The notes below the pieces were generated by a model. That model did not search any database. It saw nothing but the letters and a program-made list of their open reading frames with translations, and was not told the DNA's origin. Position numbers and translations under genes: made by a program. A stretch of DNA of 63,106 nucleotides, the filler included, from Intoshia linei (lineage: Eukaryota > Animalia > Orthonectida), in assembly GCA_001642005.1 (NCBI GenBank). It is 7 parts of 7 records of this genome, joined end to end, with 100 filler letters (N's around TTAATTAATTAA, not from the genome) between each part and the next. Parts side by side here need not be neighbours in the genome. Positions count along the whole stretch, not along the records: positions 55,024 to 60,469 come from LWCA01001775.1; 6 more parts are not named here. One strand, 5' to 3'. Every line of letters begins with the position of its first letter. Position 1 is the first letter of the stretch. Positions 6,640 to 60,599 of the stretch are shown here, piece by piece.

Positions 6640-8346
6640 ATGCCAATTCATAGCGGACAGTTCATGGTCATGTCCTTGAGTGACAACGAAGACGACAAGC
6701 CAAAACCTCACAAAAAGCGCAGTTTAAAATATTGGTCTATCCGTGCATCCACAAAAAAGAGTATACACCGATCTGCAAACAGAAATGTAGATGGAACTGC
6801 CTCATTGACGCGAACTGGTTCAGATTCGTCGATACATGTGGATAATGATAAAATCGATTTCAGTATTGAAAAGTTGACTAAATCGTTGCAATTGTTTCAA
6901 AACAACTACAAGCCATCAAACGAAAACATTGAAAATTTGGTAATGTCGCCAAAGTGGAACAACTTTCTTGGCACATCGTTTAATGTGCGTAGAATTATTA
7001 GACTTAATAATATCATCTGGCGAGAGTGGTTTAGACAAAATCAACTTAAATTGAAACCACGTGTGTGTAAATTTGTCAACCAGTTGAATCGAAAGGAATG
7101 TAGTTTTTATTTGGGAAAACATCAATTTTTACAGAAATTAATGTATGTGCCAAGAGAATACCGATATTTTAGACTTTTGTATTTGCAAAAGCATTGCATT
7201 GAAACTCAAAAATTGTCATACTCTCCAATTGCCTTATGGAACCCTAGAAGTATTATTTGTCGAGACCAAGACACTAGACAAGAGGAGATTAATTTCGAGA
7301 ATGGAACCGATAATTATTGGGACATGAATAATTATCACCATTATGCTTTTCAAGCTTCACCTGCTCAGCAGCTTAATAAATTATCGTCGGCATATGCTCA
7401 TACTCGACCTCTTTACGAAAATCCAAATGATCAAAATTCTAATCCAATGGAAATGTATCAACATGATTATCTTGATAATTATCAATATACACAGAAGAAC
7501 AATTTCTATATGCAGGACGCTTTACAACATCATTTCAGCACTTTTCCAACATCCAATTATTCTAGTAATCCGAACCTTTCAGAGTATGATGTAAATTCTA
7601 ATCTTATACATGATGATTTGAACAGTTTTTCTAATCTAAACTACAATATTAAATCCGTAATTTCATACAAATGCACATTTCTGTGTCCAATGACATCGTC
7701 TTTTGGGAACCCTTTTAACATTTACAGCAGGGATTCTTAATATTTTAAGAAAATAATATCAATTTAAAAAATAAGTTTATTATTAAAAACCACCCAAAAT
7801 GGGCGATATCGTTGAGGTTCAGTATCCCTGATCTACAGTTATATTTTTGACTAAGTTTAGCAAAAATTGGTGCAAGCGACGCATTGCGATTTTCGATGGT
7901 GCCATTGGGAGTATTGATATTTTTTATTTTTTATATACAATTTTAGGTTAATACTCATTTCAATTGTCAATTTCAACAGAAACCCCAGTTACACAACTAC
8001 AGTAAATATTATAAAATCAATTATGATTGTGTGATCGATGCGATGAATAAAAATAAACGTATTAAAGTCGAAAATGAAAAGACCGAATTTCAAAATGTAT
8101 CGATTGGTGACACTGAATTTAAAAAAAGCTTTCAAAATTATGTAAATTTTTATGAAAAAAAAGCTACCAGTCAATGTGATGAAAATAAATTTTATAATCA
8201 ATACATGGCTAAAAATAAAAACAAAAGCAATAATTTGTTAAATACACCCGGGCGATTTACGCAGGACAAACCTATCAAAAAATTCCACTCTCCTTTACAA
8301 AATTCAGAAAGCGACTTTTCTGGTATTGGAGATATCAAACTCAATG
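6640..8346 (+). CDS. MLXIP: Mondo/MLX-interacting protein (ChREBP/MondoA family), 5' part; exons 6640-7656 and 7947-8346; bHLH-Zip exons not in this contig
   Basis: Mondo conserved regions: IHSGQFMV (cf. IHSGHFMVS), VMSPKWNNFLG (cf. VSPKWKNFKG), IRLNNIIWREW (cf. IRLNNAIWRAW), PRVCKFV, REYRYFRLLY. A GT-AG phase-0 intron at 7657-7946 keeps frame with the 8031 ORF. Confidence 0.85.
7728..7830. mobile_element. 103-bp hAT MITE in Mondo intron
   Basis: TIRs cagggattct / agtatccctg; TSD atttacag / atctacag (7 of 8 identical). Confidence 0.75.
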
Positions 8347-8908
8347 TATTTTTATTTTTTTTACATTTATGTATATTTGTACAATAATGGCACCATATTG
8401 GTAACTAACCATTTTTTCTTTAGTTAGATCAGTGCTTTTCAACCAGGTGGTTACGATATTTATCAGCGCGTCGTGAGAATTTGAAAATTTTATGAATACA
8501 TTTATTTAATTTTTTTATTTTAATATACAATGGATAAAACACGATAATATTAAGATATAGTTAGTATAACTATCAATATTGAAATTATATGATCATTATC
8601 GAATTATATTGAGTAGTATTGAAATTAACGTTACTATATGACTACCGATTGATTTTATAGAAATATTGCATAAGAGATGGTATTTATTCAATATCTATTA
8701 ACATCCGTTTCTAATGGTTACGAACGAATTTTACAAGTGTACATTTGAATTAGACATACCATAACTTTCATGATGCAAGTGAATAATTTAATCATGGAAA
8801 CATTTATATTTTGATCAATTAAATTAAAAATTAAATTTTCAGGTTTACGTTAATAATTTTTATTTATTTTGTGATTTTAACGCTTTATCACCTCAATTTT
8901 TAAACCTC

Positions 8909-9008
8909 NNNNNNNNNNNNNNNNNNNNNNNNNNNNNNNNNNNNNNNNNNNNTTAATTAATTAANNNNNNNNNNNNNNNNNNNNNNNNNNNNNNNNNNNN
9001 NNNNNNNN
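8909..9008. other. Artificial contig linker
   Basis: N44-TTAATTAATTAA-N44 (stops in all six frames). Identical linkers at 14736-14835, 38038-38137, 44277-44376, 54924-55023 and 60470-60569. Confidence 0.98.
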
Positions 9009-9913
9009 AAATCACTACTTGAAAGGCTTAAAAATGAATCATTTTTAGAATAAATTATCACAAGAGATGAAAAATGGGTATTATGGGATAACACAAAATT
9101 GAAAAAACAATGACTTTCACCAAATAAATCTCCATTATGTACCCAAAACCCAATTTACACTGTAAAAAGATTATGTTATGCATATGGTGAGATATGGAGG
9201 GTGTGGTATATCATGAATTTGTAAAAAACAAAGAAACCATTAATTCTGATAAATACTGTGAAAAATTAGAAAAATTAAATCACAATATTTACCTGAAAAG
9301 ACCACAAATGTTTCGTAAAGGCAATATTATTCTACAACAAGACAATGCTAGACCTCACACTTCTAAAAAAACCTATCATCTTCTAAAGGAGTTAAAATTT
9401 GAAGTATTACCACATCCACTGTATTCACCAGGCTTAGCACCATCTGATTATTACCTATTTAAAGNAACAATTAGAAAAATTAAATCACAATATTTACCTG
9501 AAAAGACCACTAAAGTTTCGTAAAGGCAATATTATTCTACAACAAGACAATGCTAGACCTCACACTTCTAAAAAAACCTCTCAGCTTCTAAAGGAGTTAA
9601 AATTTGAAGTATTACCACATCCACCGTATTCACCAGACTTAGCACCATCTGATTATTACCTATTTAAAGCTATGAGTAACCATTACTATGGTAAAAAATA
9701 CACTTCAAATGAAGGGTTAAAATTGGACAGAAAAGTTTTTGTCCAATAAAGTAGCAAGTTTTTATGCTAATGGTATAAATAGACTACCGGAACGTTGGTA
9801 AAAGACTGTGGAAAGCAATAATGAATATTCTATAATATAACTTTATTTTTAATGTAATCAAATAAACTTTTCAATTTTGTTAAAAAAACGACATTACTTA
9901 TGAAACGACCTAA
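9009..9913 (+). mobile_element. Mariner (DD34D) transposase pseudogene with 3' TIR
   Basis: ITRDEKW, KKIMLCIW, QQDNARPH, HPPYSPDLAPSDYYLF motifs; several stops and frameshifts; 3' TIR ...acgacattacttatgaaacgacctaa-TA. Confidence 0.95.
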
Positions 9914-10179
9914 TAATATATATATTTATTTATATATGACATAATTAGTACTATGATGTAGTTTTGTCGTGATAGATCATTAATAAACCATATTTGCAGT
10001 TCGGTATGGGGTGGAAAAATTTGATAATTTTTTAATTATCAGAAAGTGAAAATCACATAAATTATAATAGTAATCAATATTCCAAAAACACGATTATACT
10101 CACAGATTGAATACAATTGCCAACCCCAAACGAACTATTTATATCGTAAATTATTATACTAATGAAAAATGGATATTAC

Positions 10180-13100
10180 CCATTATTCCCATATCCAATT
10201 TCCCTGTCGTTTTCGCTTTTTCTGTAAAATACACCAAAGCAAGGTCAAAATATTGATAAATGGCATTCTGAAGAAGCACATTGAGACCAAGAATTCGATT
10301 CAAAAACTTGTTTATATTATTAGAGTCTTTATTCAATTGTATAATAGCCTGTTTTGTTGGTTCAGCGATATTCGAATTTTGTGTATTCACAGAATTTAAT
10401 AGTCCAACATCGACCAAACCATTTTGGGCATCTTTGAAAAAATCTCCTTTATAATCAGGTTTTTCAACATCGCGTGTAAAAAAATCGCTTTCAACAGTGC
10501 ACAAGTAGTCGGAAGGTTCATACATGCCGCCATATTTTGGAACGGCACTGGATATTACCCTCATAACTTGATATAATGCTCTCTGTCCATATTTACTATC
10601 AACATTAAACTGTCCTAAATCACGCATATCAGCCACACGTCGGTCCCCGTGAGTGAGGGCACCAAGAGACTCTAGTTTTTTTGAAACACTTGCGGCAAAT
10701 CGTCGCTCTCCAGCCAATTTTGATATAAGGAATACATATTCTGGTGGTTCTGTTTGATTAGAACGATGCGACCTACCAAACTGTTGAATTGCGCGGTCTG
10801 CACTCCAAGCCAACTCCATAGTTATATGAATACGTTTGGAATTATTTTTTACTCGGCGATCTGAATGAAGAGATATTCCAGAACTCGCAGCTTCAGATAT
10901 AATTGTAATTTTCTTCTTACCATCCATAAACCGTTTCCTTTCCATTAAATTGCACGTTTCAATCGATGCTTCATCATCAGCACGATTTAAAAGTAAGGTT
11001 TCACCAGATTTGGTTTTCACAGTTCTACTTTTTCGACCCGTCATTTCAGCAACCTTTTTAGGTCCGCCCAATTTTTCCATCAGTAAATCCAAAGTGTTTA
11101 AAGGGAAACTATCATCCATGTCATTTATACATGTCAAAATACATTTTTTCATGTTATTGCAAACTACATTATGATTAGTGTGATTGTAATTCAATCCAGC
11201 CTTAAGTTTATCCACCATTGCCATACTGGAATGTAATTCTAGTTTTGATTCTTTTGCATTTTTTTGTTCCATTTTCACAGATTCAGTATCAGACTTGGAA
11301 TCTGATTCAGATGATGATTCTGATCCATCTGATGCCTCGGAATCTGAATCATATGCAACTTCAGAATTTGATTCATTTAAGCTATCCGAACTTTCAGAAT
11401 CGCTATCAAATTTTTGTTTTTTCGATAAAGTTTTAGAGTTGAATATAGTTTTTCTTTTTCTTTTTGAATCTAGAATATTCTTACAAAAGGATTTACAAAA
11501 ATTTACATCGTCGTCCGATTCAACAGAATCAGATGAAGAAGGAAACCACTTTTTTACAAACTGACAAATGACGCATTTAACGATAGACACATGACGTTGC
11601 AAGTTTCCATTGAGTCTGTCGTACTCTTCCAATGTTTGAGATTCACCGGTTGATTGTAATCCAATTATAACGGATTTGCCTTCATGTATATATCTTTTTA
11701 CAATATCAACACATTTTTGTACTTTGGATGAAATACACACATACTTAAAGAATCTCTGATGTGCGGACCAAAATTGAGACCATATGTGTTTGCAATCAAA
11801 ACTTCCATTAACTTCGGTCATTTTTTCAATACCTCTTTCAACTAATTTCAAAGTATAGGCCCATAGAATGACATATTTATTATAATTTTGTATAAATTTA
11901 TCGGTTAAATCAATTTCTTCTACCCTAAAACTAACACCTTTGAAACTCAACTGACGCGCAACATACATTCCTCTCATTTTCATGTCCATTGCAACCAATT
12001 CCATAGCACCAACTCCTCTTTTTTCCACGGAATTAATAAAACTATCAAAACAATTGAATGGAGTTCCTTCGCCCCAAATGCCTAGTCTAGTCATGTATGC
12101 CATTTGCCTCGGTTCAGTAGCTCCAGTAGCCGAAGAATAAACGATTCTGGCATTTTTAAGGTTTTCCTGGATATTTATAACCATTGTAGCCGTTTTCGTG
12201 TTGAAAGCACTATTTTTGTGTTTATAATTTTTAGCTCTATGACATTCATCAAAAATTATAAGTCCATCAAATTTTTTACCCAACCAATGAACGATTTGGT
12301 CATATCTCGTTTTAAAATAAGTATGCGTTGTGGATTCTGCTATAAAGGATGAATACGTAGTGAATAAAACACCAGATTTCATAGCACCGTTATGTAATGA
12401 TGAAATTTTGTAATTATAAGACATTTTGTTTAAAGCTGAAACAGGAATCCACTCAGAGTCAATATCCTTTAAATCGCGTTCAGCGTCGACTTTTAAATCA
12501 TTTGAAACACTTATCCACAACGTTTTTTTTCTTCCAGCAGCATAATTTTCCAGAATTAAACCTGCAATAGTTCTACCTTTTCCTACTCCAGCACCGTCTC
12601 CAATAAGAAACCCGGCTCTACAGCCGTCCTTTAAAAATGTAGCGTGTTTTTGAGAAGCGTAAATGATTGATTCCAACTGAAGGGCTGATAATTTTTTTTT
12701 CTGTATGATTTGGGAAGGTAAAGACAATGAGTATATCGGATCCGGTGGTTCAATATTAGAAAGAGAGCAAGATTCAACAACGGCATCAGGGTGTAGTCCG
12801 CCGATATTAACTTTACTAGGCATATAATTAGCAAATGTATCTGATAAAGTAAAATCATCCTCATCAAATTCAAAGTGCTGAGTGGCGTCACCATCCTGAG
12901 CATTTCCAATAAACCTATTAACACTTAGCTGTGACGCTTGGGCAATTCTATTAGTTTCTGTGATTTTAAGCGGGTCCTGGTAAACCATTAATTGCTGTTT
13001 CCCACCTTTATTGGTTAAAACTAATTTAGGTTCAGCATTAGCGTTGCCTGCATATTTTTCATCGCAAAGAATCTTGGTTAACAATGAATTTTCCATATTT

Positions 13101-13504
13101 GACTTATTTACTTTAAAAGTTACAAGTTGAACGGTTAATTTACCGTAAGCATCAGGTACAAAAACTTTTCGTGTCAAAATTTGTTCATTAACGTTGATTG
13201 GTGCAATTTTTTGTACAGTAGGTGGTATGTATTGGCGAATGTTTAAATTTGGAAGGGTAGGTGGTTTTATTATAACATCATCATCCGAACTTAGTATATC
13301 GTCTTTTTCTGTCAATTCTTCAGAATCTAACGCATGTAGGTCTGCTTTAGATAATTTCAATTCATTATTTATTCGATCATCAAATTTACTGTATACTCTT
13401 ATTTCATCTAAATTTACAGCATCGTGACCGTTTAGTTTATCCTAAACTCAAATAAATTTAATTTCACTTAATCATACATTAAGTTTATCTTTATCAACAT
13501 CCAT
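10180..13504 (-). CDS. SBNO1: Strawberry notch homolog; exons 13504-13478 and 13441-10180; C-terminal exons missing from the contig
   Basis: LSALQLESI, GFLIGDGAGVGKGRTIAG, IIFDECHRAKN, YSSATGATEP, AEMTGRK, ISEAASSGISLH, WSADRAIQQFGRSHRSNQ, FLNRILG, DMGIM. A 36-nt GT-AG intron at 13477-13442 joins ATG 13504 in frame; donor GTAAT at 10179. Paralog number not resolvable. Confidence 0.95.
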
Positions 13505-23200: not shown

Positions 23201-26200
23201 TTTTAATAAAATATTTACTAGTCGATTTAAGTCGACTCCGACAAAAAATATCGACACCGATTTTTTGATTCGGTTCCAATCCCTAGTCATAATCAATTTT
23301 AATCATTATTTATATAATATTCTACGTAATATTTGTTTGTGTGTGTGTTCTACTTTATTTCAATAACTAACAGTATTAGAATTTTATAAAGTCCACATTT
23401 CAATGAAAGTTTTTTCCGGGGGTGTTAGCAAAATAAATTTTAACCCCCCCCCTCCAAACTCACATCTTACGGTTCAAAAACACCAATTGTCCTTTTTTAA
23501 AAAATCAAACGAATTTGAGAATTTAAAAAAATATATATGCTAATATGGATTTTAAAATCATAAGCATTATCATAAATTTAAATTTAAAAAAATTATATCT
23601 TCAGGGCCAAAACCCCAAAGAACCCTTCTTTTTTTAATGAAAACAGATCTAGAATTTAAAAAAATGTACAGGTGGTACAATTGTACCCTGTTAACACACA
23701 TAAAAAATTTCAGTCCGAATAAGTGACGACTTTAGTTAGTTGCTGTTTGTACCAAGTACAAAACAGTCAAGCTAGTTAATTAGTATAATCATTAGTTTAA
23801 AAAATTACACACATTCTTCCATGCCTTTTCAAGATAAAAAGAAAACATCAATTGAGCAATATCGGTAAAACAAGATTGATAAAATCCAATTAAATGTAAT
23901 TGAGGAAAAGACAAATTTACATTATCAATAGAAATGTAAAACAGTTTATTAAACCTAAAACTAGCATCCACATCAAAACTTTCAATTTTAATCTGATCAA
24001 TAAGAAACTGAAAAGATTCCTGAACAACCGAAACATCAAAAGATAAAAATTCGACAAAATAATCGAAAATATTGAAAATTTCCATTAAATACTCTTCTTC
24101 GACATTAAAAATAAATGGAGAAATTTTAACATAAAATTGATTAATTTGAATAAATAAATTTAAATCAAATGTACAAAATACACTAAAAAGTGTGTCTGCA
24201 CAATTCTTTTTTTTAAAAACATTGACAAAATTAAAACAATCACTATTTTCTGCAAATGGACATAAGACGGATAAATCCGACATGGTCATGTAAAAAGTAC
24301 ATGAAACAATATTATCAAAGGATAAATCTGAATCAATTGACAGACTTTGAATATTAACAAATAAAAATTCACTGAAATTATCAATATCACAACATTGTTG
24401 AAAACTGTCTTTAAACTGTTGATAAAATTTAAACTGAAAATTTGAAACTTTAAAAAAAATTTCAAATTTTGTCTTTTTTAACGAATTATGTAAAGGCACA
24501 GACGATTCATTAGGCAATAAATTAATAAAAGAATTTGATACACGAGAATAGATTTTTTTGGAAATAAAATTAGAATCTTTGGATAAAAATGATAATTTAT
24601 TATTTGGTAAATAAAAATGAGGATTGTTGCTAAATTTGACCATATCAGGCAACATCAAAGTAGATAAATTTGCAAATTCAAAATCACAACCTATACCATT
24701 AAATATAAGAGTAACATCAACTAATATTTCATTTATAAAGGTTTTGTAAATTTTAAATTTTCCATAAATATTTTTAAAATTTTCACAATGAATAGAGAAA
24801 TTAAATTGCTTTTCGGTATCATTAGAAAAGAATTTATCAATATTAGAAAAATGACAGAAATTTTCAACATCAATACAATCCACAGAATCATTTAGAGGTA
24901 TAATTATGTATAAACATTTGAAACAATTTATAAAATTATCAATTATAAAATTTTGAGAGGTTGACTTTTGAATAAAAATGACTGTATCATCAAGATCAAG
25001 TAAAGATGATATTTTAAAATTTGATTTAATTTTGAAATTTAATAAAATTAAATCAAAATTGTAATTATTTTGAATAAAAAAATTTGTAATAGGTAAATTG
25101 TAATTAATTTCAACATTAAACCGAGACACAAGTGAATTTTGGTTTTTAAAATGAATTTTTGACCATTTAAAATTTACTGAAAATTCAACTTGATTTTTCA
25201 ACTCGTATTTAAACCCTCTTTTCAATTCGACATATTTTAAAATCTTCAAATTTTGTGGTTCTGTACAATTCCTTGTAGAATCTAGAGAATTTTGTGAAAG
25301 ATATTTAAAATTTTTACACAAAAATATTGGATATTTAGATATAAAACAATTTTCATAATTTAAAAAACCAGATAACCCTTTTAAAATTGTATTGAGCTGC
25401 ATTTCACATTTAAAATTCACATAAAGAATGGAAATGTACATTTCTTGCAATAATTCGTTTTGAGAAAGTGGTAATTTCGTTAAATTTTTTTTCAATAATG
25501 TAAGGGTAAAAATATTTACAAATCTGCAGCATTTTGGTGGTATATAGATATAACAAGGTGTAATTTCTTTTAAAAATGTATTCAATTCATAATGTACCAA
25601 TTTTTCAACATTATCAAATAATAAAAGACAAATTGATATACCAAAATCTAAATTATTGTAAAACTTGACTGGATATTCAAATTTTATGTGTAAAATTTCA
25701 AAAGTATTAAAATTGAAAAAATTTGAAATTTTAACAATAGACATAACATGAGGATATATAGTTTGAAATGGTACATATAAAGATGTATTTTCATTGGTTT
25801 TAATGTTATATAAGCTTTTAGAATTATTTTCAATTAAAAACAAATGTGTTTGTAAAATATTTTTAAAATAATGAATCACATTTTCATTGATACAATTAAC
25901 TCGTGAATTTGCGGGGAAAATAAAATTTTCATTAAAATTTTTAAAAATTAAATCAACTTGTATACAATTCAAAACGTTACATAAAGTTGATATAAAAATT
26001 ATATCCAATATACCACATTTGAAATAACTTTGTAAGCATTTTTCATTTTGAATAATTAAGTTTTTTTCAGATTCGTCCAATTCATCTTTTTTTTTGTTTG
26101 ATTCAAGAAAAAATTGTTTCAATAATAAAATTGGTTTAAATAATAATAATTTTCCATCAGAATTATAATTCAAGTATAAATGACGTTTTGATGATTTGAA

Positions 26201-29200
26201 AAAATCATTACAATAAAATTCATCAAAAATATTTAAATTATATAATGCTAATTTTTGAACCACATTAATATATTCACAAAAACAATCAAATGTCCAAGCT
26301 TGCACCATATTCAAATTTTTTTCACTTTTTTCAACATCTTTTGAAATTTTTGAAAATGACTGTGCTTGATTTAATTTATCTAAACTATACCATGTGCATA
26401 AATCTTGTTGAATATTAAAAGGATTAACAAGATAAATTAAAGGTAAAAAATTTACAGAGATGATGGAAAACTTGATTCCATCAATACAAAATATTCGATC
26501 CGTTACACTAACTTTTACATAAACTCCATCACACATTTGTTTAATATAGATAATATTGATTCCGTAAATTGACAAATTTTTATTGTCTATTTCATTTTCT
26601 AGATTTGTAATATTTGTATTAAATTCCAAAAATTTTAAATTTTCAGAAAAATGAGTCAAAGATAAAACTTTTTTAAATGTACATTGATTTAAGAATAACG
26701 TTTTATTGGTAAATGCAAAACATTTACTTAAAATGTTGAATTCATTTAAAATACACATTTCTCGGCCAGGAAAAAGTTGTACACTTATTCCTTTAAAATT
26801 ATTATTTAAAAAGTGTATATATAACGGAAAAGTTGTCCAATTTTTAACTTGTAGTGTAGATTTAATATAAAACTCTAAAGTATTAATATGAGAATTAATT
26901 TCAATATAAAACAAAACTTTTGAATCAATAATAATTGGAATAGTTTTTTTATTTAAATCAAGATAAAATTTAAACTTTTTATCACTAGTTAAAACCAATT
27001 CAACATGACACGATGAAATTAAATTACATTTTGAGTATTTTTTACAAAAAGTTGTTACAAGAAATATTGAATCTATAAAAGTAAAATCACAATTTGTTAA
27101 ATTAATCAGAGTTGCAGTAGATATTTTGACATCATTTATATCAAAATCATTAATAATGTGTTTATAAAACATGTAAACATTAAAAATTGATTTCATACGT
27201 TGTTTGTCCATATTAACCAAAACTGAAGAAATATCAAATTTTAAACAATCACAAAGTGACAAATTTAAATCTTGACATTTAAATATATTAGAAAATTGTT
27301 GACTTAAAATATTCATAATAAATATTGAGATACCATTGAGTTTTGAATAATGAGATTGAAAATTTGTACTAAAAGAGAATTCAAATAATTGTAGTTTGAA
27401 ATATTCTTGAACATTGAATGTATGATTTAAAGCAAGTTTTGTTTCACTATTTATTAAAGAAAATTTAAATAGTACACTTTTAATAATAAAGTGAATAATA
27501 GATAAATTTACACTGCTGCAATTATTTTTTAAATCATTAATATCATCAAACATTCGATTTTTAGACGTTTGATATTGATTAACAAAATTAATAAGAAAGT
27601 TTACCAAATATACATGAATATTATTTAAATTAATGAAAATTTCATCAAGCATGATATAATTGACAGTTTTATGATTAAGATTCATTCCAGCATAAAGTCC
27701 ATCAACAGTCAAAAGGTTTATAAAGGGACAAACAATTAAAGGAATTGATTGATTATTAATTTGAATTAATAAATCAATTAAACTAATCTTTTTAACAAAA
27801 CTAGAAATTAAAATTTCCAAAGAAAAATGAAAAACAATTTCTTTACAAACCAAATCAAAGGTATCTTTTAAAAAGAGCAAACATTTAGGTAAAAAAGAAT
27901 AATTTTCATTAATCCTTTGTAAAACAGATTTGGTATCTTTATCCACAAATAACGAAATTTTGAATTTATCAAAAAAGAAATGACAATAAGAATTTTGAGT
28001 TAAAATTACATCAAAATTTAATTTCAACGTATCGGTAATTTCATTCTTCAAAAATTTGAATTGTTTCAAATTTATTTCATTTTCCCAAGATTGAAAACAT
28101 GTAATATACAATTTGTAAAAATAAAACAAAACATTTAAATCATGAATATTAACCAAGTATTCATTTTTTAGAGAAACTATGATCCAATCAATACAATTCA
28201 TCTCATTTTTATTAAAACATTGAATAACTTTAACAGATTTAAAAAATTTCAATTTTGAATTACCTTTATAAAAGTTTTTTTCCTCTTTTGGATAAATTTC
28301 AGAGATTAAATCGAAATTTGATACTTGGCATGTGTAAATCAATTTAAAAGATTTGTTTATCAGATTTATATATGTTTTAGGAATTTTATTGTAATCATCC
28401 GTAGTTAATTCAGTACTTTTCATTTCCATTAAAATTAACACTATTGTCCTGTTTATATCTCTTAAATTTAAATAAAATTGCAATTTTTCTACAATAATAT
28501 CAACATTATAAAAAATTTTATTATTTTTATCAATTTTTTTTTCTTTATTGAAAGGCACAAAAGGTAAAAAAGTAGATTGATATAAAAGTGCACAATAAAT
28601 CAACTTTATAAAATCAATATTAACATCAACATTAAATATTAATTTGCAAAATTTAAATATCACAGAATTATCGCTTTTTGAAAGAGAAAAAAATGCAGTA
28701 TATATAGATTGATCAGGTTCAATAGATATGAACAATGTTGAAATGTATTGCAATTCACAGAGAGAATTAGCTTTTACATGATTATAAATGTTTTCATCAT
28801 TGATTGATAATTTTGAAACTTTTAAGAGAATTTCAAAATCAATTTTTCCACATTTAAAAATAACATTTTTTAGTTTACTGCTTTTGTCCATTTTAAATAA
28901 CATTTTTAAATTTTTTTTTAATTCATGTAAATCATTTTCTAGTTTTATGTGACGATTAAATAAAATTGTAAATAAACATTCCATACTAATCATTTTTTCA
29001 AAATACCATTTAATCTGCAAATCAAAGTTCATTCGTAAACTGAATAAAAAAAAATTTACTAATTCAGTTGAACTGTAAATATTCATATCAATTTCATCAT
29101 CAAATTTGATTGAATTTTCAAGTAATACCATTGAACCCACAGAGTCAAAATCTTTTGTTCTAATAATCAGTTTACTTTGAATATTTAATAAAGTATTGTA

Positions 29201-32200
29201 AATAAATGCACAATTGTACAAAAATCTTACATATAAATTGATACAACGTGGAAAAACGTGAAAAAGAATCAACATGGATTGCTGTACATCACTTTGTTTA
29301 AACATTTTATCGTAACATGCAAATATATCACTAAAATATGATAATGAATCTCCAATATTAAAAAAATCGTCAATTTTTAAAACATGATGGCAATGATACC
29401 ACCTAGATTCTAGATAATTCAAAATTTCCAAACAAATTTCAATTTTTATCAACATTTTCGCTTCAATTTTTTTTTTTAAATCATAAACAAAACTTAAATC
29501 TTTTAGATACAATGCCAATACATTTCCTATTCCTTTATCCGTCTTATCCTTAACATTAAACATTTCCTTAACTAAATTTAATTCACTGAAATTTTCAATA
29601 AAAAATATTGACGAATGAGAAGCAATTAAAACAACATTATTGATAGAAATGTCAAAATTTTCTAATATTCCCTTTTCTTCATTTAAATTTGACTTTTTCT
29701 TCATTTCATTAATTTCATTTCCACATTTCTTTGATTCAAAATGTTTATAATCAAAAATTGAAAACAAATCAAATTCACTACTTAAAATAGACATCATTAT
29801 CAAAATTTGATGTAAATATAAAAATGTACCTTTAAATTTAATTAAACAATAAATTTTTTCGGTAAAATTCAAACTCATTTGAACATTTTTTTCATTATTT
29901 AACGTTGAACATATTTGAAAAATTGGAATACATTTTTTAGTAAAATTTTTAAGATAATCTTCACAATATACAAATGCGGAATCTAGATTAAATCTAATCA
30001 TGGAAATTTTAGATTTCGATTTATCCAAAAATTTCATAAAAAGAAAAATTTCATTGAAACAGAAATTATAGTTGCGATATAAAATATTTTTGTAATAATC
30101 AGCATCATCACCTGATAAACAAAGATAATTTTTAATATTTTTTAAATTAATATGATATACCGTACATTTCAATGTAGCAACAGATATTAAAATATTATTG
30201 TACAAATGTGAGCAGGAAAAATTTTTTTCAAATTGATAAAGTTCTCTAACCCTAAAACGTACATCAGCAGATAAATTTTCATTTGAAATTGTGGAATAAA
30301 TCATTCCGAATTCATGTATAGTAATTTTTAAGAGTTTATTGCAATGTTGAAAACACGTTGAATCGCTGTTTAAATTTATGTATACATTATCAATTAGTAA
30401 CTTACATACATACTGATTAAAACAGTATAAATATAAAATATAATTAATTTCCATCTTTTTAAGATTAATTTCTAGACCATTTATATAATTTGAAACAATT
30501 TTAACATTAAATATTATCATTTTAAAATCTAACCATGAATTATTACAAATGTTACCAATGTTTGATAATAAGGGTTCCGTTTTAATAATAATATTCTCTG
30601 TTGAATCCATATAAGGCTTGTAGCGTTTAATATAAACTGAATATATCAATTTTAGCGTATATACAAAATGTTCATTAAATATAATATCTTGATTTGCAAT
30701 CAATAATAAATCTTTACGAATATTAAACATTTCACAATCATTTTGAATAAGATGGATAAAAGATGTGTATAACATGGCAAAATTACACTTATTCATACAA
30801 AAATTTACAAAATTTGACACATTTCCAGAAAAAGTTGTCAAAATGTATGAAAATATAACATTTAGCTTTGAATCATTTTCAATGTGTTTGTTTCCGTTAA
30901 TTGTATATACGTCATAATTTTGATTATTATAATTAATTACCGTATTAATATGGTCTATAGATATCGCTTTAAAATTTAATATACCCAAGTTATCCGACAA
31001 TATATTGAGATTCATATTGGATATGGTTAAAAAAATTTTTCGATCAGACAAATCAAACCTCTAAATTTTTTATTTAAATTTAATTTCTTAAGTTAATAAC
31101 ATTTTAAATCAGTGGTCACATAACTGCGACCAGCGACATGTTATTTATGATGATTTTTAGGTTCATAACCAGGCTCTTCATAAAATAATTATAAGCGCAA
31201 TTATAATAATTGCTTATTATTAATTTATAACATTTATATACATATTAAGTTATATCCTAACTTATATAATATGCTACGCAATTTTTGTTTGTGTGTGTGT
31301 GTTACGCTTTATTTAAATAACTATCAGTGTAAGAATTTTTTAAAGGCCACCTTTCAATTACAGTTTTTTCTGGGACGTATAATAAGAGAAATTTTAACCT
31401 GCCAATTTCACATCTTACGGGTCAAAAACCCCAGTTGTCCCTCTTTTTGAAAATCAAACGATTGGAGAATTTTAAAAATTCTATACGCTGATACGGATTT
31501 TAAAATTATAAACATTACCATAAATTTAAATTTAAAAAAATTATATCTTCAAGACCACAACCCCAATTGACCCTTCTTTTTTTAATGAAAATAGCCCTAA
31601 AATTTCAAAAAATTTACAGGTTGTACAGTTGTATCCTGTTAACACACAAAAAAAATTTCAATCCGAATAAGTGACGACTTCACGGTCAAAAAAACATTTT
31701 AGTATTCATATATTTTTTTTTCGAAATATTTTATTAAAACAAAAAATGTAAAATAATTAACGGTCCGAAAATTAAAAAAAAGAAAGATTATTCTGATAAA
31801 GCTTATTCCAGTTGATATAAATACAAAATTTCAACCGAGAAATCTAAGCATTCCAGATGAAAAATAATTTTTAATATATTATCAACCAATATTTTTCAAA
31901 TATTTTGATTAAAAAGTAATATGATGGTTCCATCTGACACAAATTTGGGAACCACTCCTTTAAAGGATTGATAATAGTTAATAGTAGGATTTTTAAGTTA
32001 GATTTTCAACGTGAATTTATTTTTTAAGTATAATAAAAATGTGCTCTCGGCAGAGCTAGGTCCTGTTTGTACGTAGTATGTAAATTTATTTTTTGGTAGT
32101 ATAAAAATGTTCCCTCGGTAGAACTAGGCTACGGGGATTGATAATAGTGAATAGTAGAATTTTTAAGTTAGATTTTCAACGTGAATTTTTTGCTATCATA

Positions 32201-34467
32201 AAAATGTGCCCTCGGCAGAGCTAAGTGCTGTTTGTACGTAGTACATTAGGGTGCCACACACATCTGAATTTTAATTGCGCGTAGTGAAAATTCGTTGCTC
32301 TTAAGCAATGTATTCACTATGTCGTTTTTAAAATTAACTAAAATGATCTGTTTGATCTGCAGGCTTTAATCAAAGTTTTACAAAATTTGGAACTAATAAA
32401 CATCAGTTCAAACTATTTTACATAATTACTACTTTTAATTCTAATTTTCATCACCTCTACTCGAAATGATTGACAATATAATAAAATTTGTCCATTGTCT
32501 GAAGCGACATACATTTGAGCGATACATCTTAAAGCGAAATAATAATCGATTTCACTAATTGATTATATCACTAGTTGACTGTTATGTACCACGTACAAAC
32601 AGCGTCTAGCTCTGCCGAGGGCACATTTTTATTCTACCAATAAAATGAATTAACAATAAGAAAGTCTAACTTAAAAATGATGCTATTCACTATTTTCAAT
32701 TTTGTATCAATAATTAACGGAATCAGCACGTTAAAAACATGTTTCTGGTAAGTTTTACCAACATTGCAAAGCATTGTAATAAAAATAAAAATAACAAAGT
32801 TGTACTTTTTTGTTGTAGTTTTAGACTAAATGAAAAAAAATCCGAAGGAATCAATTATATAGATTTCCACCCACATGTCATTTTTTATTATCATAATATT
32901 AATGAATTTAAAACTTTTTATTAGAATGTGTACTTTTTATAATTCTAGGACGAGTTTGAATTTAAAAACAAACCACAATTTTATTATTATATTATTATTA
33001 TTCAAAATTTCAGAAATCATAATAATTATTGCAATAATTTATTTTTTCAAATTTTTTTTGCAATAAAATAATGATTGGGCCTGCTCATTATTATAATTGG
33101 ATTGTTTTTAAAATTTGACTATCATTGTCAAAAATTAATTAAAAAATTGGATTTAAAATTAAAAATTCAGTCCTACGTAGAGAATCTCCTGTTTGTACAA
33201 AGTACATAAAATTCAAGCTAAACACAATATAAATATAAAGCTTGAAATCGATTGGAAACTTCACAGAAAGATTAAATAATAATTATAAACATACCTGTTT
33301 TGGTAGAATGAGAGAAAATTTTAAGAGTAAAATATTGATATTGCATAAAACTATAAAATTGGTTGAATCTTTGGAACCAAGACTAGAAGAATTACAAGAC
33401 ACATTATCTGAATAGTGAATATTTTTTTTATCAGCATGTTCATTTTTTCCATAAAAATCTTTAAAAATACCATCAAACCAATAATTACTATCTGTCGTTA
33501 AATCATCAAATTTATCAATAGATTTATCTTTATAACTTTTCTGTTTATTAGCATTAATTTGAGAAATTTGCATTATAACATGACTAACGGTGGAAACTAA
33601 TTTTTTAAAAATATTAAATTTAATAGACGTAATAGATATTTCTGCAAGATTAGTCTGTAAAATATATTTATCTCCACCAACCACATCATTAAAAAAATTA
33701 GCATAAAAATCTGACTTTAAATCATCACCTTGTGTGGATTCAGTTGTTATATATTCATTTTTAATTTTAATAAAAATGGTATCAAAATGTAAATCTTTAA
33801 TAAGGTGCAATTCTTTTAACTTTGAATTTAAATTTTTAAAATAGACATTGCAACCAGAGCAGGATAGCATGCGAGTTAAAATTTTACAAGATTCATTAAA
33901 ACATTCATTATAATTTGATGTATCAAATAAACTATCATTTTGATCGAAATATGTAGATTCATCGTCTGTACATACAGATTTTATAACAACATCACTTGCA
34001 GTCATATTTAGTATAGTTTTCTCTTTGATATCAACGTAAACAAAATTAAAATTTTTAATCTTGTATTTTATATTTGACATGATGGAATTGTAGTATGATG
34101 ATAAATACGAATCTTCTTCTACATTCACATTAACATCATTTTTATCTTCAAAGTTTGATCTAACATTCGTCATACAATTGTCTCCCAATGAAGATGATTT
34201 TAAGGTTAGGTTTGTAATTTCTACTATAATTGGTTTTGACATGATGTAACGCCATTGAATTTGAACTCGGAATTTATCAATTATACCTGATATCAATTGA
34301 ACTGGTAAATTTAAAGACGATTCAAGTTGGTTCAGTTTAATTGATACATTTGATAAATTAAGTTCTCCCGTCCATAAAGAAAATGACAAGTTTAAATTGT
34401 CAGTATCTATAAATTTAGAAATGTATCTTATCAATAGAGGCTCGATATAAGAAGATATGTTAAACAT
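20248..34467 (-). CDS. VPS13B: VPS13B-like bridge lipid-transfer protein, ~3090 aa; exons 34467-33295, 31060-23809, 23055-22879, 21376-21221, 21152-20900, 20580-20403, 20331-20248
   Basis: Chorein-N start SYIEPLLIRYISKFI...FSLWTGELNL...LNLPVQLISGIIDKFRVQIQW matches the VPS13B-type N-terminus. C-terminal ASLSIIGNPAMFIKSIYNG...LVKGLSKG and GSVGLFIKPTIG match the VPS13 C/ATG2-C region. All introns are GT-AG with compatible phases; exons sum to 9273 nt. The last two exons are less certain. Confidence 0.85.
23139..23285. mobile_element. 147-bp hAT MITE
   Basis: TIRs tagggattggaaccgaatc / gattcggttccaatcccta; perfect 8-bp TSD gtcataat. Confidence 0.9.
23309..23775 (+). mobile_element. Non-autonomous Helitron-like element
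   Basis: 3' hairpin ctgtttgtac-caa-gtacaaaacag followed by CTAG|T; body similar to 31255-31690 and ~960-1140. Confidence 0.7.
31255..33220 (+). mobile_element. Composite Helitron-like cluster in VPS13B intron 1 (tandem sub-terminal duplications, inverted copy starting 32571)
   Basis: A|TC 5' start at 31255; repeated ctcggcagagctaggtgctgtttgtacgtagtac blocks at ~32046 and ~32211 and inverted at 32571-32630; degenerate 3' hairpin at ~33188-33220. Confidence 0.65.
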
Positions 34468-35662
34468 ATTTAAAATTGATCAATTATTAACATTCTAAAT
34501 GTTTTGTATATCAAAAAAATATACAATAACAACTTTACTTTATTTAATTCAAAAATTCAATTAGTATTTTACTTGTGATGTTACGTAGAATAAATTATAT
34601 TAAAAGTTTGGTATGTTTATATTTGATGTTTAAAATACACTATAACATGACACACATGTAAGGCATATGACAGAAACCACACACATTTAGTATGAGTTAA
34701 TGATTAACTTAATCGAATCAAATATTATACATCAAAGTATCCATAGAGATATGCCGCTCCTTCGAGCATACTAGTTTGGGCTGTGCTGTGTTAAAAATTA
34801 AATATAATAAATTGATGTATTCAATTTTTTTATTATTTTTAATTTTCAATTATGTATACGTGGATAGCTTATCAACGGTGATATTTAAATTAATCACTAT
34901 TTTTTGATATCTACAGAATCTTTTTTTTACAATTTTTTTTTTGTTAATAATTTGTAAATCAAATTTTTCTTTTATAGGTCGATGTTACCTTTAATCGTTC
35001 TCATTACACACTAAGAGTATTCTTTCGGAAATCTTTGTGATAAGCTATTACTATATAATGTAGTTACTTATATAATGTCTACATGATTTCAATTTAAATC
35101 TTGAATAGATGCGATTATAATCTTTTAAAATGGTATGCCCATTATTCAGGATTTTTAAATTTTTTATAATTATGGAATTGAATTAATCACTTAACAAGCT
35201 CAATTTCTTTTTGAAATTTAAATAAATTTCTCGCACAACTGATGCATCCTATTCGAAAGGATTCAAGTTTTTAAAGTACAATTATCGTTAAGTTAGCCGA
35301 TAAATCTACACCAATATTAAGTTTTAAATTGAATTGTCCATTCAAATAATTTTTTTGTATACCCGCGGATGTTAAAAATGTTCTGTACTAGATATTAACC
35401 TAGGATACTTGGGCTAATTTTAAAATGTATATTATTTTTAAGGGTCCATCCTTCAAATATGATTTTATCTAATATATATGATAATTTTTTGTAGTTTTGA
35501 TAATAATATTCTTTGGGCTTAAGTTTCTAAATTTTGATATATTTTAAAATAAACTGTATACTAAAGTCCCTACTTATTGACAAAATTTGAATTTAAAATT
35601 TATAACGAATCGTGGGGGTTTAAGAATTTAGTGTAATTATGAAAATCCTGTAATTGTAATTA

Positions 35663-37289: not shown

Positions 37290-38037
37290 TTAATACTGCA
37301 AATTTATTCAATATGCAGATGACCTAAAAATTTACTCAGTAATAAAAAATTTTGCAGACAATGAAAAAATACAGAAAGATATTGACTCAATATATGAATG
37401 GAGTAATAAACATAATTTACCGTTAAACTTAAGTAAGTGCAACGTCATGCACTTCACACAAAACAAAAACGACTTTTACCCCACGTTAAAGATCCACAAC
37501 CACGTACTACCGAAAATAACCTCTGTCAAAGATTTGGGAGTCACGTTTACAGATGATGGGAAATTCGACCAACACATTGAACGCGTTGTACGTGCTGCTA
37601 AAATTGAGACATTCAGAATTAAAAAAACTATTGCCTTGCGACAACTCAAATATCTACTTCTTCTGTTTAAATTATTTATTCTACCAAAAATCGAATACGC
37701 GAGCCAAGTTTGGAACCCATCAAAAAAGGATATAAAACGTCTCGAATCTGTAAACAAAAAAATCTATTCTGTTCTAATATGTCACTTCAACATAGAAGGT
37801 CACTCACATTCACTCATGGACCTCAACCTCATCCATAAAATACTAAATTCAAATATAATCTCACCTATCCAATTTAACTACACAACAACCCGAAAAAATA
37901 TTTAAAAAACGATTTGCGACAAACCTCCACAAAAATTTTTTCTACAACCGAATAACGAACTACTGGAATCAACTACCCAAAGTAATTACATCACTCAAAT
38001 CCTCAACAGTTTTCAAAAAGCAAACCACAAAAGTTAA
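37290..38037 (+). mobile_element. 5'-truncated CR1/L2-like LINE reverse transcriptase fragment
   Basis: QYADDLKIY at ~37309, then WSNKHNLPLNLSKCNVMHF, VKDLGVTF, PKIEYASQVWNP; frameshifted 3' part with YWNQLP. Confidence 0.92.
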
Positions 38038-54621: not shown

Positions 54622-55475
54622 CTATTTTAAAAATATTTAAAAAGTATTTTATTTATTATTTATATTAATGTTAGTAGATTTAAAATAATAATATATTATA
54701 TGATATTAAATATTTATCTTAGTAAATATTTTAAATTCAATTAATAAAATTATAAAATTGATAACAATTTTTCAATATACATCCAGACCTGGAGATACTG
54801 ATACCTGTGATTAGTCAATCTACTAAAATACATAAAATAATCTCAAATTTGTTATTAAAACCATTTTCTGCCCTATAATATATATAATATAATAAATAAT
54901 AATAAAAATATAATATAATATATNNNNNNNNNNNNNNNNNNNNNNNNNNNNNNNNNNNNNNNNNNNNTTAATTAATTAANNNNNNNNNNNNNNNNNNNNN
55001 NNNNNNNNNNNNNNNNNNNNNNNTTGCAAAGGATTGTAATAAATATAAAAATGATATTAACAAAGTTGTATTATTTTAGTTTCGTTGTTGTAGTTTTATT
55101 CAAAATGTTTTGAAAATGAGAATTTGAAATTTAAAAACTGCGTAGCAATGAAACAAATTCCGAAGGAATGAATTATATAGATTTTCACCCATATTTCTTT
55201 ATTGGAAATGTGTAGAGGTTCAATACACACTTTTTTCTGAAATTGTAGGATCAATATTTACATTTTCAATTTTTATTTTAATCGAAATATTTTGAAAAAT
55301 ATTGGTTGAATATATTAAAAGAATTTTTCATCGGAAATGCGTAGATTTCTCGAATTGAACTTTTGTATTTATATATACTGGAATAAACTCTATCATATTA
55401 TAGTCATATCATAGTAAGGATATACAAATATATGTAATTGTAATTAATAATTATACAAACTTTGTATAAACATAA

Positions 55476-58400
55476 TTATTCTTCAGAGCTTTGACTTAAA
55501 TTGAAGCTGTCATCTAAATAAAATATAAAAAATAAATATAAATTTTAATTTAATAATAATAATTATTAATCTATTATAATAGATTAATATACGATACCCC
55601 TAGATAAATTCGGAAAATATGCCAAAACTAAATAGTGTAATGAATTCACTCTATTTTCCTAATAGTGTTCATTACAGATTTTTCAAATCGTATGAACAAG
55701 TTCGTGTTGCGTATCACCATCAAAACGGACAACAAATTTTTTAAATACATTGACCAATTTTCCTAGAATTTAAAAAAAATATTCTGAACAGCTTATTCCA
55801 GTTCATACATATACAAAATTTCAATGTACATCATTTCTGAATCTAAATGTTACATCAGATTTTTTTAACATAACTTTGCAAACAAATTGAAATAAGCCAG
55901 CTGAAAAAAATAATGATACATATAATCAAACCACTCGAATCAGAGACGCCAAGCATTTCCAATAATTCGCAATCATTTACTTGTTTCAAATCTACACTGT
56001 CTGATAGTAATCTTGATTCTTTTGCTTTTTCAATATTTTTTTCGGACAAATTTGATTTTTCTATAGATTCATTATTGTTAAGTTGTTTGACCTTTCTAAT
56101 TAATGTAAATTTTACCGGAATTGAAAATTGTATGCAAGTGTAAGAAATTATGTAGTTATATTTTAGTAATCAATTCAAAAAATTGTTTAACCAAACCTTA
56201 AATAAAAAATAATTTTATAAATTCTAAGCCAAGATATTATCAATATTTGTTGTTCAGTTAAGGCTGGTTGAAAATGAGGTTTAATTGATACATTAAATAT
56301 GTACATTTTAAATGTATATTTCTATATTGTACTTTGAAAACATGTCATTAGCTTACCTGAGAATTCGTTAAAGTGGATTTTGTAGGATTGATCAAATCCA
56401 ATTACATAAGTATTACCCAATCAAATGTATTAACATAACGTTTATTAAATTATAAGGTTTAGAAAATTTTAATTTTGCTATAATTCTGGAATCTAGAATC
56501 TAGAATCTAGAATCTAGATAAACAATATAAATATTCAAACCTAGTGCATTTGACTTTAACGTTGCATGATATTTTTTCCAAAATAAATTTTTTTTCTATA
56601 GTGTCATAAATCAAAATACATTCCTTTGGTACATTTCGATTAATGTTTCCCTTAAATAAAATTCCTCGATTTGTCTAAAAGTTACTAATATATATAATAT
56701 ACTTTAATTAACAAACAAATTTTAAGCCAAAAATTTTTATACGTGATCAATGATCATAGATAAGTAGTTTTGGCTTTAAATTTCATATAAAATAAACTAA
56801 ATTGATAGTTTTATACTAAGACTCTTAGTACAACTCTTTACTACTAAGTAAAGGACTCCTTTGTAAGGATTAGGTACACCAATGTTATATTGTATTTAAA
56901 TTTACATCCTATATGTTGACAATTTAGTCTGTTTTATTGTTTTAACAAAACGGCTAATTTTTGTTGCATACATGGAATATGTGTTTACCCTTTGAGGCAG
57001 TGGTTTTCAACCCGTGTTCCGCGGAACCCAGGGGTTCCGTGAAATATAAATGCGATATTTTTCAATTTAAAGTTTTTCTAAATTACTGTGGTATGCAATA
57101 AAACAACATCATTTCTCAAATTTAAATCAAATAAGTTTTAATAAAAGTTTTATACGTTGTGAGTATGGGAACCTGAAAAATGATGTTAAAAAGTAATAAT
57201 AATTCAGATTATCTTTATGAGAAATATTGTAAAGAAAATAGGTTTTTACTGGCCCAACTCTCTTGAAATAATTTAAATAAGTTACTTACCTCTTTATAAT
57301 GAGAGATAACTAAAAAGTTATCTCTGTCGGGCCTCGATGCTTCTTCGTTGTGTGAGGTAGGCAACTGGTTTTACCGGCTAAATTCCGTGTGTTATTAATT
57401 TTTTAATTAAAAATCAAATTGTTTTATGTATGCGACATGCGAAAAAAATTTTTGATTATGCTTTTAGGTGCCGCGATTTTTTGAAATTTCATAAGGGTTC
57501 CGCTTAGTAAAAAAGGTTGAGAAACACTGCTTTGAGGAATGCATTACACATATACATGTAAATTTATTTTCACAAAGTTTATTCATTCCACATATAAATG
57601 TAAATTTAATATCATGAAATTTATCCATTCCACCGTTTCATAAAGGGGTTTTTACATAATTAGAATGATTGAATTTTTATCTTTTGATATATTTTACCAT
57701 ATTGTGTCAATTCCTGAATGATTTAATTATGAAATAAGCAAATTTCAGGTTTTAAGTATACAGTGGTTTCTGTTCAATATGAATACTGTATAATATGAAT
57801 TCACGCTTATATGGATTTCATGAAAATAAAAGTTGTTTTTGTATAATATTTATTATAAGAAAAAATTTTTAATATGAATTTGTGTAAAAAAACATCAATT
57901 TGTATTAATTTTCTATCACGTGACTTATAAATTTCAGAAAAGTAACCATTCAATATGAATTTGAATTTGAAGAGGAAAAGATTTTTAGATAAATGATAAA
58001 ATAAAATTCATTAAACTGACGAATATTCAAATCGATCTCAAAAATATTTAGCCACCAAACACTCAATTTCAGTAGGTTTGATAAATAAGTCGTTAAAAAA
58101 TCGTGAAGAAATCCTTAATTGTAATAATTTAAATTTGAATCAGAAGAGACAACCTTGCCTAAGGAAATCAATGAAAATTGAATAAGTGGTTTCAACGTCA
58201 ACGGACATTAAGTATAAGTGGCAATATACTGAAAGAAATGGCGCTGGAATAGATTAGGAATGACTTAAATGATTGTTAATAATAAGTAGCATTTTTAATT
58301 AAGATTTTATTATTGAAATTATTTTTTTGATAAAATTAGATAAGTCCCCTTGGCAGAGCTAGGTGTTGTTTGTACGTAGTACAAAACAGCCAAGCTAGTA

Positions 58401-59021
58401 CTACTATAATATGGTAGCCCTAATTTAAGCCTTCTACAATATTTTTAAAATTACTGTCTGATTTAACATTGAAATGTCTATTGAATTATCGTCAACAGTT
58501 AACGTTGAATCGGCTTGATTAAATGATTCCGGAATGAAATCGTCTAAAAATTAAAAAAAATTAATTTATTTAATTAATTATTTAATTTAATTATTTAATT
58601 TAAATTAAATTAACTAATTTCTATCTCTATATCAATCCCTGAAGGAATGGCAAGTAACGACTCCCTTAATTATAAAAAAGTCACGTAATTTTAAAATAAA
58701 CATAAACTTGTTTATAAACTCACACTACACAGACTTCATAAACTTGTTTGTTATAGTCACTAATTCAAATTCACTGAACAACCGTTTTATCTTTAAGATA
58801 AATTAACTTCAAGGATAAAGTTTAACCTTGTTGATTGTTAATTGATACATTAGTCTAATGAAATAAATTAAAGTAAAACCTTTATAAGCATAGAAATAGT
58901 AAATTAAATTGTAAAAATTACATAAATTAGTTAGAAAAGTTGAATTTTGACTTTTTGTAAAAGAATCTCCAATATAAATTTTATTTTCATTACATTGTTG
59001 CATAAAATTTACAAATTTCAT
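55476..59021 (-). CDS. EAF: ELL-associated factor (EAF1/2 homolog); exons 59021-58922, 58543-58455, 56674-56541, 56095-55932, 55513-55476
   Basis: IYIGDSF...FLTNLYDFIPES (cf. LRLGESF...FHTIRYDFKPAS); LFKGN...KECILIYD...FILEKISCNVKVKCTR (cf. VFKGN...KDCVLII...YVLEKLSSSIQVKKTR); acidic end FNLSQSSEE (cf. LQLSESGSD); phases compatible. Confidence 0.88.
56998..57529. mobile_element. hAT MITE
   Basis: TIRs cagtggttttcaacc / ggttgagaaacactg; perfect 8-bp TSD ctttgagg. Confidence 0.92.
57760..58260 (+). mobile_element. Tigger/pogo transposase N-terminal remnant
   Basis: TA-cagtggtttct terminus; broken KRKRF...SQKYLATKHSISVGLINKSLKNREEI...SISGNILKEMA (psq/CENP-B HTH-like). Confidence 0.65.
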
Positions 59022-59072
59022 TTTCGAAAAAGAAAAATTTAAAAATAAAGTTATTGTATTATAGAATTATTT

Positions 59073-59933
59073 ATGGACCTACCAAAACACAAAAAATCAA
59101 AAAATTGTATATTATTAACTAGTACTGAAGAAGAAAATTTAAAATATCAAGATAAATCAATTTTATCTACCAGATTAGCTGACAAAATTGAAAAAAATGT
59201 TGAAATAAATTGGGATAAATTTTACAACCGGAACAATGATAATTTTTATAGAAATCGATATTGGTTTAGGAATGAATTTCCGAAAGAAATTTTTTGTATT
59301 CAAAATTTACAGTTTCTAGATGTTGGTTGTGGAGTAGGCAATTTATCTTTTCCATTATACCAATATGTTTGTAAACTTAAATTAGATTGGAATTTTACAT
59401 TGATTGATTTTTCACATAGAGCCATCAAACTTGTAAAGGTAAACGTTTTTTGTTTATAAATTATAAATATAATTATTTTAATGATCACTGATTACGATTT
59501 ACATGATTTACTGATTATCGGAAACAATTTTATTCTTTTTACTAATTTATGATTTTATTTTATATTTTTTTTCTAGGAAAACCAATATTTTAATAAAGAT
59601 GAAATGACCGCATTACACTTTGATATAGTTCAGGATTTAGCATTTGATGGAAAAGTTTTGCAAATTGAAAAATTTAATTTTGTGACCCTAATTTATGTTC
59701 TATCAGCAATACACCCCAATAATTTTTGTAAAGTTTTAACCAATATTTTTAAGGTATTTTATTTTATCTATTTATAATTTTCAATTTTTAGATAATGAAA
59801 CCTGGTGGATATCTATTCTTTAGAGATTATGCCATCAATGATCATGCAATGATTCGTTTTAAGAGAGATAGAAAAATATCTGACCAATTGTACGTTAGGC
59901 AGGATGGCACAAGATCTTATTTTTTTGAATTGA
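59073..59933 (+). CDS. METTL6: tRNA m3C methyltransferase METTL6; exons 59073-59438, 59577-59753, 59792-59933; 3' exon missing
   Basis: NWDKFYNRN, LDVGCGVGN, DFSHRAI, VLSAIHP, KPGG...FRDYAINDHAMIRF, YVRQDGTRSYFF. DHAM and RQDGTRSYFF are METTL6-type rather than METTL2-type. Confidence 0.92.
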
Positions 59934-60407
59934 GTAAGATTTCAAACTTATTATATATTCAAAGATAATAACAAAAGAATTATCAAGAAAAGTTCATCAA
60001 TATTACGCTGATGAATGAATTATTTTTAATTTGATTATCTGATTACATTACATAAAAAAGTGTAATTTTTTAACTACTGTACATTAAAATTTTTAAAGTA
60101 TAATATGCAATAAGTCAAGGCCCAATTTATGTGATAATAGGTTTACTATTATATATTACGTAAAAACGGTATCTAGCTCTGCCGAGTATCGACTTTTAAT
60201 TCTACAAAAAAATAAATTCAATAATAAAATCTTAGTTAAAAATGCTACTATTCACTATTATCAACCCTTTAAAGGAGTGGTTCTCAAACTTGTTTCACCA
60301 CGGACCGATCATATCACATTACCCTTTAATTGAAATTGAATTATTCCCACTTAATTTTATTTTGTGAATCTTTGTGTAAATAACATTTTTTGTGTTATTT
60401 GAATATA

Positions 60408-60469
60408 TTAGGTCGTTCACAAAGTAATGTCGTTTTTATAACTATAATTAAAACTTCTATAATAACAAT
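60408..60469 (+). mobile_element. Mariner TIR at contig end
   Basis: ta-ttaggtcgttcacaaagtaatgtcgttttt, same family as 1355 and 9913. Confidence 0.8.
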
Positions 60470-60599
60470 NNNNNNNNNNNNNNNNNNNNNNNNNNNNNNN
60501 NNNNNNNNNNNNNTTAATTAATTAANNNNNNNNNNNNNNNNNNNNNNNNNNNNNNNNNNNNNNNNNNNNAAAATTTTCAGTTTTTGTGATATATTTAAA

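Follow-up and report, generated by a model that had tools for sequence, protein, structure and literature searches.

An EAF-METTL6 head-to-head gene pair in the orthonectid Intoshia linei, probably shared with vertebrates by descent

In the genome of Intoshia linei, an EAF gene and a METTL6 gene lie head to head on a single contig, an arrangement also found in humans. We consider it likely that this arrangement was inherited from the common ancestor of the worm and vertebrates and was kept via one short promoter serving both genes. Positions refer to the window, the whole stretch of 63,106 nt analysed, which is a chain of contigs with N spacers between them. Gene models were compared with contigs from public-assembly runs: X2 is a DNA-type run, and X1, X3, X4 and X5 are taken as RNA-like solely because their contigs are spliced, none being RNA on record. 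The locus comprises:

55024-60469, no strand: contig with EAF and METTL6, 5,446 nt, between N spacers at 54924-55023 and 60470-60569
59073-59438, plus strand: METTL6 coding exon 1, with WDxFY, the substrate-binding loop and SAM motif I; joint to exon 2 in X1, X3 and X5
59577-59753, plus strand: METTL6 exon 2; GT-AG joints skipping 138 and 38 nt in X1, X3 and X5
59792-59933, plus strand: METTL6 exon 3; loose end of an X1 contig at 59933
59022-59072, no strand: gap between the start codons, 51 nt, 12% GC; putative shared promoter and 5' untranslated ends
58922-59021, minus strand: EAF coding exon 1, joined to 58543 in an X1 contig
58455-58543, minus strand: EAF exon 2, with non-local letters and AG ahead of it in two contigs
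56541-56674, minus strand: EAF exon 3, core of the Pfam EAF domain
55932-56095, minus strand: EAF exon 4; joint skipping 445 nt in X1, X3 and X5
55476-55513, minus strand: EAF exon 5 with stop codon; joint skipping 418 nt in X5

Both genes of the pair are spliced and intact. The five EAF exons have GT-AG ends and their joined translation equals OAF64524.1 (hypothetical protein A3Q56_07774, EAF domain) in every letter, and the three METTL6 exons encode the first 228 residues of OAF64525.1, named Intoshia linei METTL6 (partial) at NCBI; both records, with consecutive accessions, refer to the 5,446-nt contig. The two METTL6 joints, together with joints 2-3 and 3-4 of EAF, are present in three of the four runs compared (X1, X3 and X5, not X2), and EAF joint 4-5 in X5 only among X1, X2, X3 and X5. 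Since the X1 contig goes on past 59933 into sequence that has no match anywhere in the window, a fourth METTL6 exon must lie off the contig, and the last 13 residues of the NCBI METTL6 model are therefore probably an artefact. The divergent start codons, EAF ATG at 59021 (minus) and METTL6 ATG at 59073 (plus), are those given in the preliminary description, as is an alternative in-frame EAF ATG at 59003 (minus), and the exon models agree with these positions. The base at -3 is A for 59021 and T for 59003, and both starts fit the homologues. The span 58922-59438 corresponds exactly to the interval between the first-exon donor sites of the two genes. In EAF intron 1 (58880-58921, minus) a second AG|GT donor 42 nt in would lengthen exon 1 in frame, with no supporting contig among those aligned.

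The gap itself is covered by contigs. A 548-nt X1 contig connects the end of METTL6 exon 1 with EAF exon 2, passing through the gap, EAF exon 1 and then a spliced joint; its piece at 58922-59439 has 0 mismatches, and an X2 piece (58926-59095) crosses the middle of the gap. Because the X1 piece and one from the DNA-type X2 both span the gap, a mis-join is very unlikely. Such contigs carry neither strand nor transcription start, and one that spans two genes does not amount to a single transcript; X1 also has intronic pieces at a depth of 14-20, so that unspliced RNA or DNA could help to bridge the gap. On the METTL6 side contigs begin at 59033 (X5), 59041 (X3) and 59091 (X4). Should the X5 end belong to a METTL6 mRNA, 11 nt are left to the EAF ATG, and the two 5' ends would nearly touch or overlap. 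EAF exon 1 is uncovered in X3, X4 and X5, and EAF intron 1 is thinly covered in X1; such holes were not used as evidence. A scan for sigma-70 promoters gave scores at shuffle level, this being a bacterial model and irrelevant to a eukaryote.

The arrangement has a vertebrate counterpart. The human genes, named in the preliminary description as divergent neighbours, are indeed reported to have a common bidirectional promoter (10.1101/060327), with a distance of -163 between overlapping transcription starts (PMC3815023 Table S1) and correlated expression (R 0.68; PMC13738193). METTL6 and EAF share one block, with near-consecutive accessions, in turtle, chimaera and coelacanth (PMC8851819). In a darter, a CENP-A gene is described as inserted between the METTL6 and EAF first exons, so that linkage is kept and the shared region split (PMC3927593). 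In the supplement of PMC7530604, EAF appears in the ohnologue table only. The worm pair resembles human METTL6-EAF1 (3p25.1) in that the same two families are divergent with a very short or overlapping 5' region, but the human -163 nt lies between transcription starts and the worm 51 nt between start codons; moreover, the worm gap has 12% GC, and vertebrates possess two EAF paralogues.

How often would such a match arise by chance? Assuming an ortholog fraction and 7,800-9,000 genes in the worm, where the lower bound comes from locus tag 7774 and the upper, 9,000, is our supposition, the expected number of same-orientation matches per genome is 0.01-0.07 when tight human pairs are considered and 0.07-0.34 when all human divergent neighbours are counted. 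The tight human divergent pairs number 864-1,063 (PMC3815023). As tight pairs should give no more than about 0.07 such matches per genome, coincidence is unlikely; descent from early bilaterians is the likelier source of the adjacency, and we strongly favor it. Even fast-evolving animals retain some conserved pairs, namely 12 in nematodes, 46 in flies and 54 in Ciona (PMC3514665).

The alternative that the adjacency arose twice by chance, in early vertebrates and again in a reshuffled orthonectid genome, draws on the pair's distribution. From a metagenome scan the best 80 of 200 METTL6-family loci were kept, and 45 of these have 1 kb or more upstream. Searches with an EAF profile and by tblastn placed EAF beside METTL6 in 0 of 80. 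These loci include many transcripts, algae, fungi and near-copies, and none was recognised as a slow-evolving invertebrate. In a control with held-out EAF pieces of exon size, 70 of 77 first pieces, and 73/77 and 77/77 of the others, were recovered at E values no higher than 0.01. Held-out EAF profiles scored E 0.05 and 0.21 on worm EAF exon 1 and E 6-19 on exon 2, and since these worm exons score so poorly, the search could overlook highly divergent EAF exons. The best EAF-profile match among the loci (L044, E 9.2) was rejected as low-complexity noise. The lineages of the animal-like loci, guessed from trees and sequences, are presumably insect, crustacean, mite, rotifer-like and tunicate-like. 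Several of the animal-like genomic loci carry other genes upstream of METTL6:

L008, animal-like: PHD/zf-HIT
L022 and L056, animal-like: MAM33
L019, animal-like: ACBP-ankyrin
L024 and L025, animal-like: ZNF380-like
L074, animal-like: second methyltransferase, divergent (7649-9244, minus strand)

A scan of prokaryote genomes gave bacterial and archaeal methyltransferase-like matches only. Among the rows listed from the 49-genome table of PMC8851819, whose block method requires three genes per block, the four EAF rows are all vertebrate and all in "Vertebrata novel" blocks, and METTL6 of sea urchin and centipede falls in another block with no EAF row. The rows listed from the PMC8662637 supplement contain two METTL6 accessions and no corresponding EAF; the PMC2871058 supplement gave no match for the pair, nor did the searched part of the PMC13508932 supplement, outside which table S17 possibly falls. 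METTL6 accessions from six invertebrate species and EAF accessions from nine other invertebrate groups (20 of 84 EAF relatives) have no species in common. A literature search on both gene names returned no paper describing the pair in a non-vertebrate; Table S2 of Irimia et al. (2012) and table S17 of PMC13508932 may list it.

Two independent origins would gain further from the existence of head-to-head pairs specific to vertebrates, as PMC13508932 describes, and from the fact that scanning very many genomes is bound to yield some coincidences. Against this stand the identical genes, identical orientation and very short gap, set beside the small chance expectation above. Furthermore, the negative loci look, by tree and sequence, arthropod, otherwise fast-evolving animal, algal or fungal, and fast-evolving groups are reported to lose most conserved pairs (PMC3514665). 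We thus regard a double chance origin as unlikely. The preliminary description's notion of an ancient retained pair is likely and keeps the backing of the chance estimate, but the wider invertebrate adjacency on which it was staked was not encountered in any of the 80 loci, the pair being seen in one invertebrate only.

Under inheritance with a shared promoter, a single open, AT-rich stretch would be loaded with RNA polymerase II in either direction, and the 5' ends of EAF and METTL6 would abut or overlap. Breaking the gap or inserting sequence into it would then usually harm one or both of these housekeeping genes, and because of such damage loss of the linkage would be slowed. EAF partners ELL in RNA polymerase II elongation, and METTL6 makes m3C32 on tRNA-Ser together with seryl-tRNA synthetase, an activity predicted for the worm gene; the two proteins need not cooperate for this explanation to hold. 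No evidence was found for the functional link between elongation and tRNA m3C modification that had been proposed earlier, and in the human data of PMC3815023 divergent pairs are no closer in biological process than random pairs. The earlier idea of a promoter compressed in a derived genome fares no better, given that the human starts already overlap. Introns of the two worm genes range from 38 to 1,780 nt, some being kb-size and repeat-filled; since they reach such lengths and carry repeats, the 51-nt gap is a local feature and does not reflect general genome compaction.

Similar pairs are known as CAMPs (Irimia et al. 2012, PMC3514665; e.g., Hspe1-Hspd1), in which unrelated genes often lie 5'-5' within 1 kb in distant lineages. 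EAF and METTL6 are likewise two unrelated genes tightly linked 5'-5' under 1 kb, but CAMPs as described there need four or more major lineages, and METTL6-EAF is seen in two, vertebrates and an orthonectid. With start codons 51 nt apart and a gap covered by contigs, themselves devoid of start or strand, the worm genes would behave like a conserved bidirectional pair, a real and probably ancient one. If the arrangement was inherited, a linkage so far catalogued in vertebrate blocks only would date to the protostome-deuterostome ancestor, and housekeeping genes whose 5' ends abut or overlap would exemplify a gene-order constraint outlasting extreme genome simplification, orthonectids being highly simplified spiralian parasites. 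The AT-rich gap would also offer a small testable unit for a bidirectional promoter without a CpG island. Such pairs are well known (about 600), and this would be one further example unless the leader found at EAF exon 2, considered below, reflects trans-splicing.

The EAF protein carries the PF09816 domain at its N-terminus and belongs to that family. Exon 3 alone matches PF09816 with 31.3 bits (cut-off 26, E 2.7e-7), and 84 other proteins match the worm EAF at E up to 0.001, mostly over residues ~10 to 110. In two contigs from two studies, letters absent from 58420-59260 and then AG directly precede EAF exon 2 (acceptor 58543-58545); there are 27 such letters in an X4 contig (391 nt, depth 167) and 24 in an X1 contig. 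Trans-splicing of a leader, a first exon located far away and an artefact could each account for them. Accordingly, the pair might be old with most EAF mRNA starting elsewhere, a trans-spliced or distant leader being joined to exon 2, in which case the 51-nt gap would mainly be the METTL6 promoter. Against this, X1 has exon 1 spliced to exon 2, exon 1 encodes the conserved beginning of the EAF domain, and a leader at exon 2 would cost EAF about 59 residues. We find this quite unlikely. Even more doubtful is a composite scenario in which a pan-bilaterian METTL6-EAF pair survived in one of the most reshuffled animal genomes via overlapping 5' ends and most worm EAF mRNA bears a trans-spliced leader at exon 2. 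Were it true, that leader would give a first indication that orthonectids use spliced-leader trans-splicing, and would offer an escape from a promoter too short for two 5' UTRs. In the literature consulted, no report of trans-splicing in orthonectids was found.

The remaining question concerns the methyltransferase. In a protein search with 683 matches, every vertebrate-named entry within the best 120 is either METTL6 or unnamed, with 39-46% identity, and METTL2/8 is not among them; the top PDB match is human METTL6 (E 1.5e-49). The closest named homologues within those 120, and the closest structures, are METTL6. The worm protein has no N-terminal NAWD and contains RQDGTRSYFF, as do named METTL6 proteins. 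Two metagenome proteins (L045 and L048) display an N-terminal NAWD and RGDGTRVYFF, features that we take to be METTL2-type. In quick trees of 44 and 16 rows, where these two, labelled by motif, are the only METTL2-type rows, the worm protein groups towards METTL6, with a long branch (1.66-2.04) and in no starred clade. Grouping it with the two METTL2-type proteins is rejected by the AU test (16 rows, p-AU 0.007). These comparisons support the assignment of the worm methyltransferase, judged by sequence, as METTL6-type and not METTL2-type, and the earlier choice of METTL6 over METTL2/8 holds under the tree check.

Residue conservation was compared at 31 human METTL6 functional positions given in PMC11479938, three of which fall in the missing exon; of the 28 in available exons, 20 are identical. 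Six of eight SAM- or C32-binding residues (W45, Y49, F57, R60, D110, F158, Y190 and R213) are identical, and F57 and F158 are replaced by Y. Relative to METTL6/Trm141-type tRNA-Ser m3C32 methyltransferases (PDB 8P7B, 7F1E; PMC11479938), in a comparison that leaves out the last exon, the worm protein keeps WDxFY, the substrate loop and motif I, together with D110, Y190, H195, R199, R213 and R51, the last at the SerRS interface. The differences are F32 to R, K43 to I and K50 to N, on the SerRS/variable-arm side, in addition to the two changes to Y. Human F32, a SerRS contact, aligns to R at worm residue 34 in exon 1, a position occupied by F in 12 of 14 other aligned rows. A reading in which the enzyme is instead a METTL2/8 paralogue, or in which the contig is mis-joined or host contamination, and the human likeness false, could appeal to the long branch outside any starred clade and to the two motif-labelled METTL2-type rows, but this is most improbable and largely refuted by the motifs and AU test, by contigs of two studies crossing the gap without mismatch, by a GC content (23-25%) matching the rest of the window, and by an identity of ~41% to any homologue that suits a fast-evolving parasite.

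Several other elements were observed in the window. EAF intron 2 contains an element (56990-57537) that has terminal inverted ends, CAGTG...CACTG, and shows a target-site duplication of 8 bp (56990 and 57530); in our view it resembles a hAT-type MITE. A short repeat of very high copy number occurs in inverted copies on the two sides of the junction, at 58285-58400 in EAF intron 2 and at 60135-60249 in METTL6 intron 3; repeat-mediated inversion as the origin of the pair was rejected, as it would disrupt both genes without generating the pair. A separate contig (60570-63106, GC 28-38%) shows picorna-like capsid frames on the minus strand, with Atlas features at 0.96 to Rhv clusters (low recognition value) and no Pfam match. 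These frames are interrupted by a stop near 62191 and by further frame breaks, and the contig may represent an endogenous viral element or else a virus that was co-assembled. Further features occur on other contigs, their coordinates given jointly as 6619-8384, 10157-13441, 23795-34479, 9191-9746 and 37294-37902: Pfam matches to strawberry notch and a VPS13-like N-terminus, as well as what we take to be a Mondo/ChREBP-like frame, a mariner-like transposase and reverse-transcriptase fragments.
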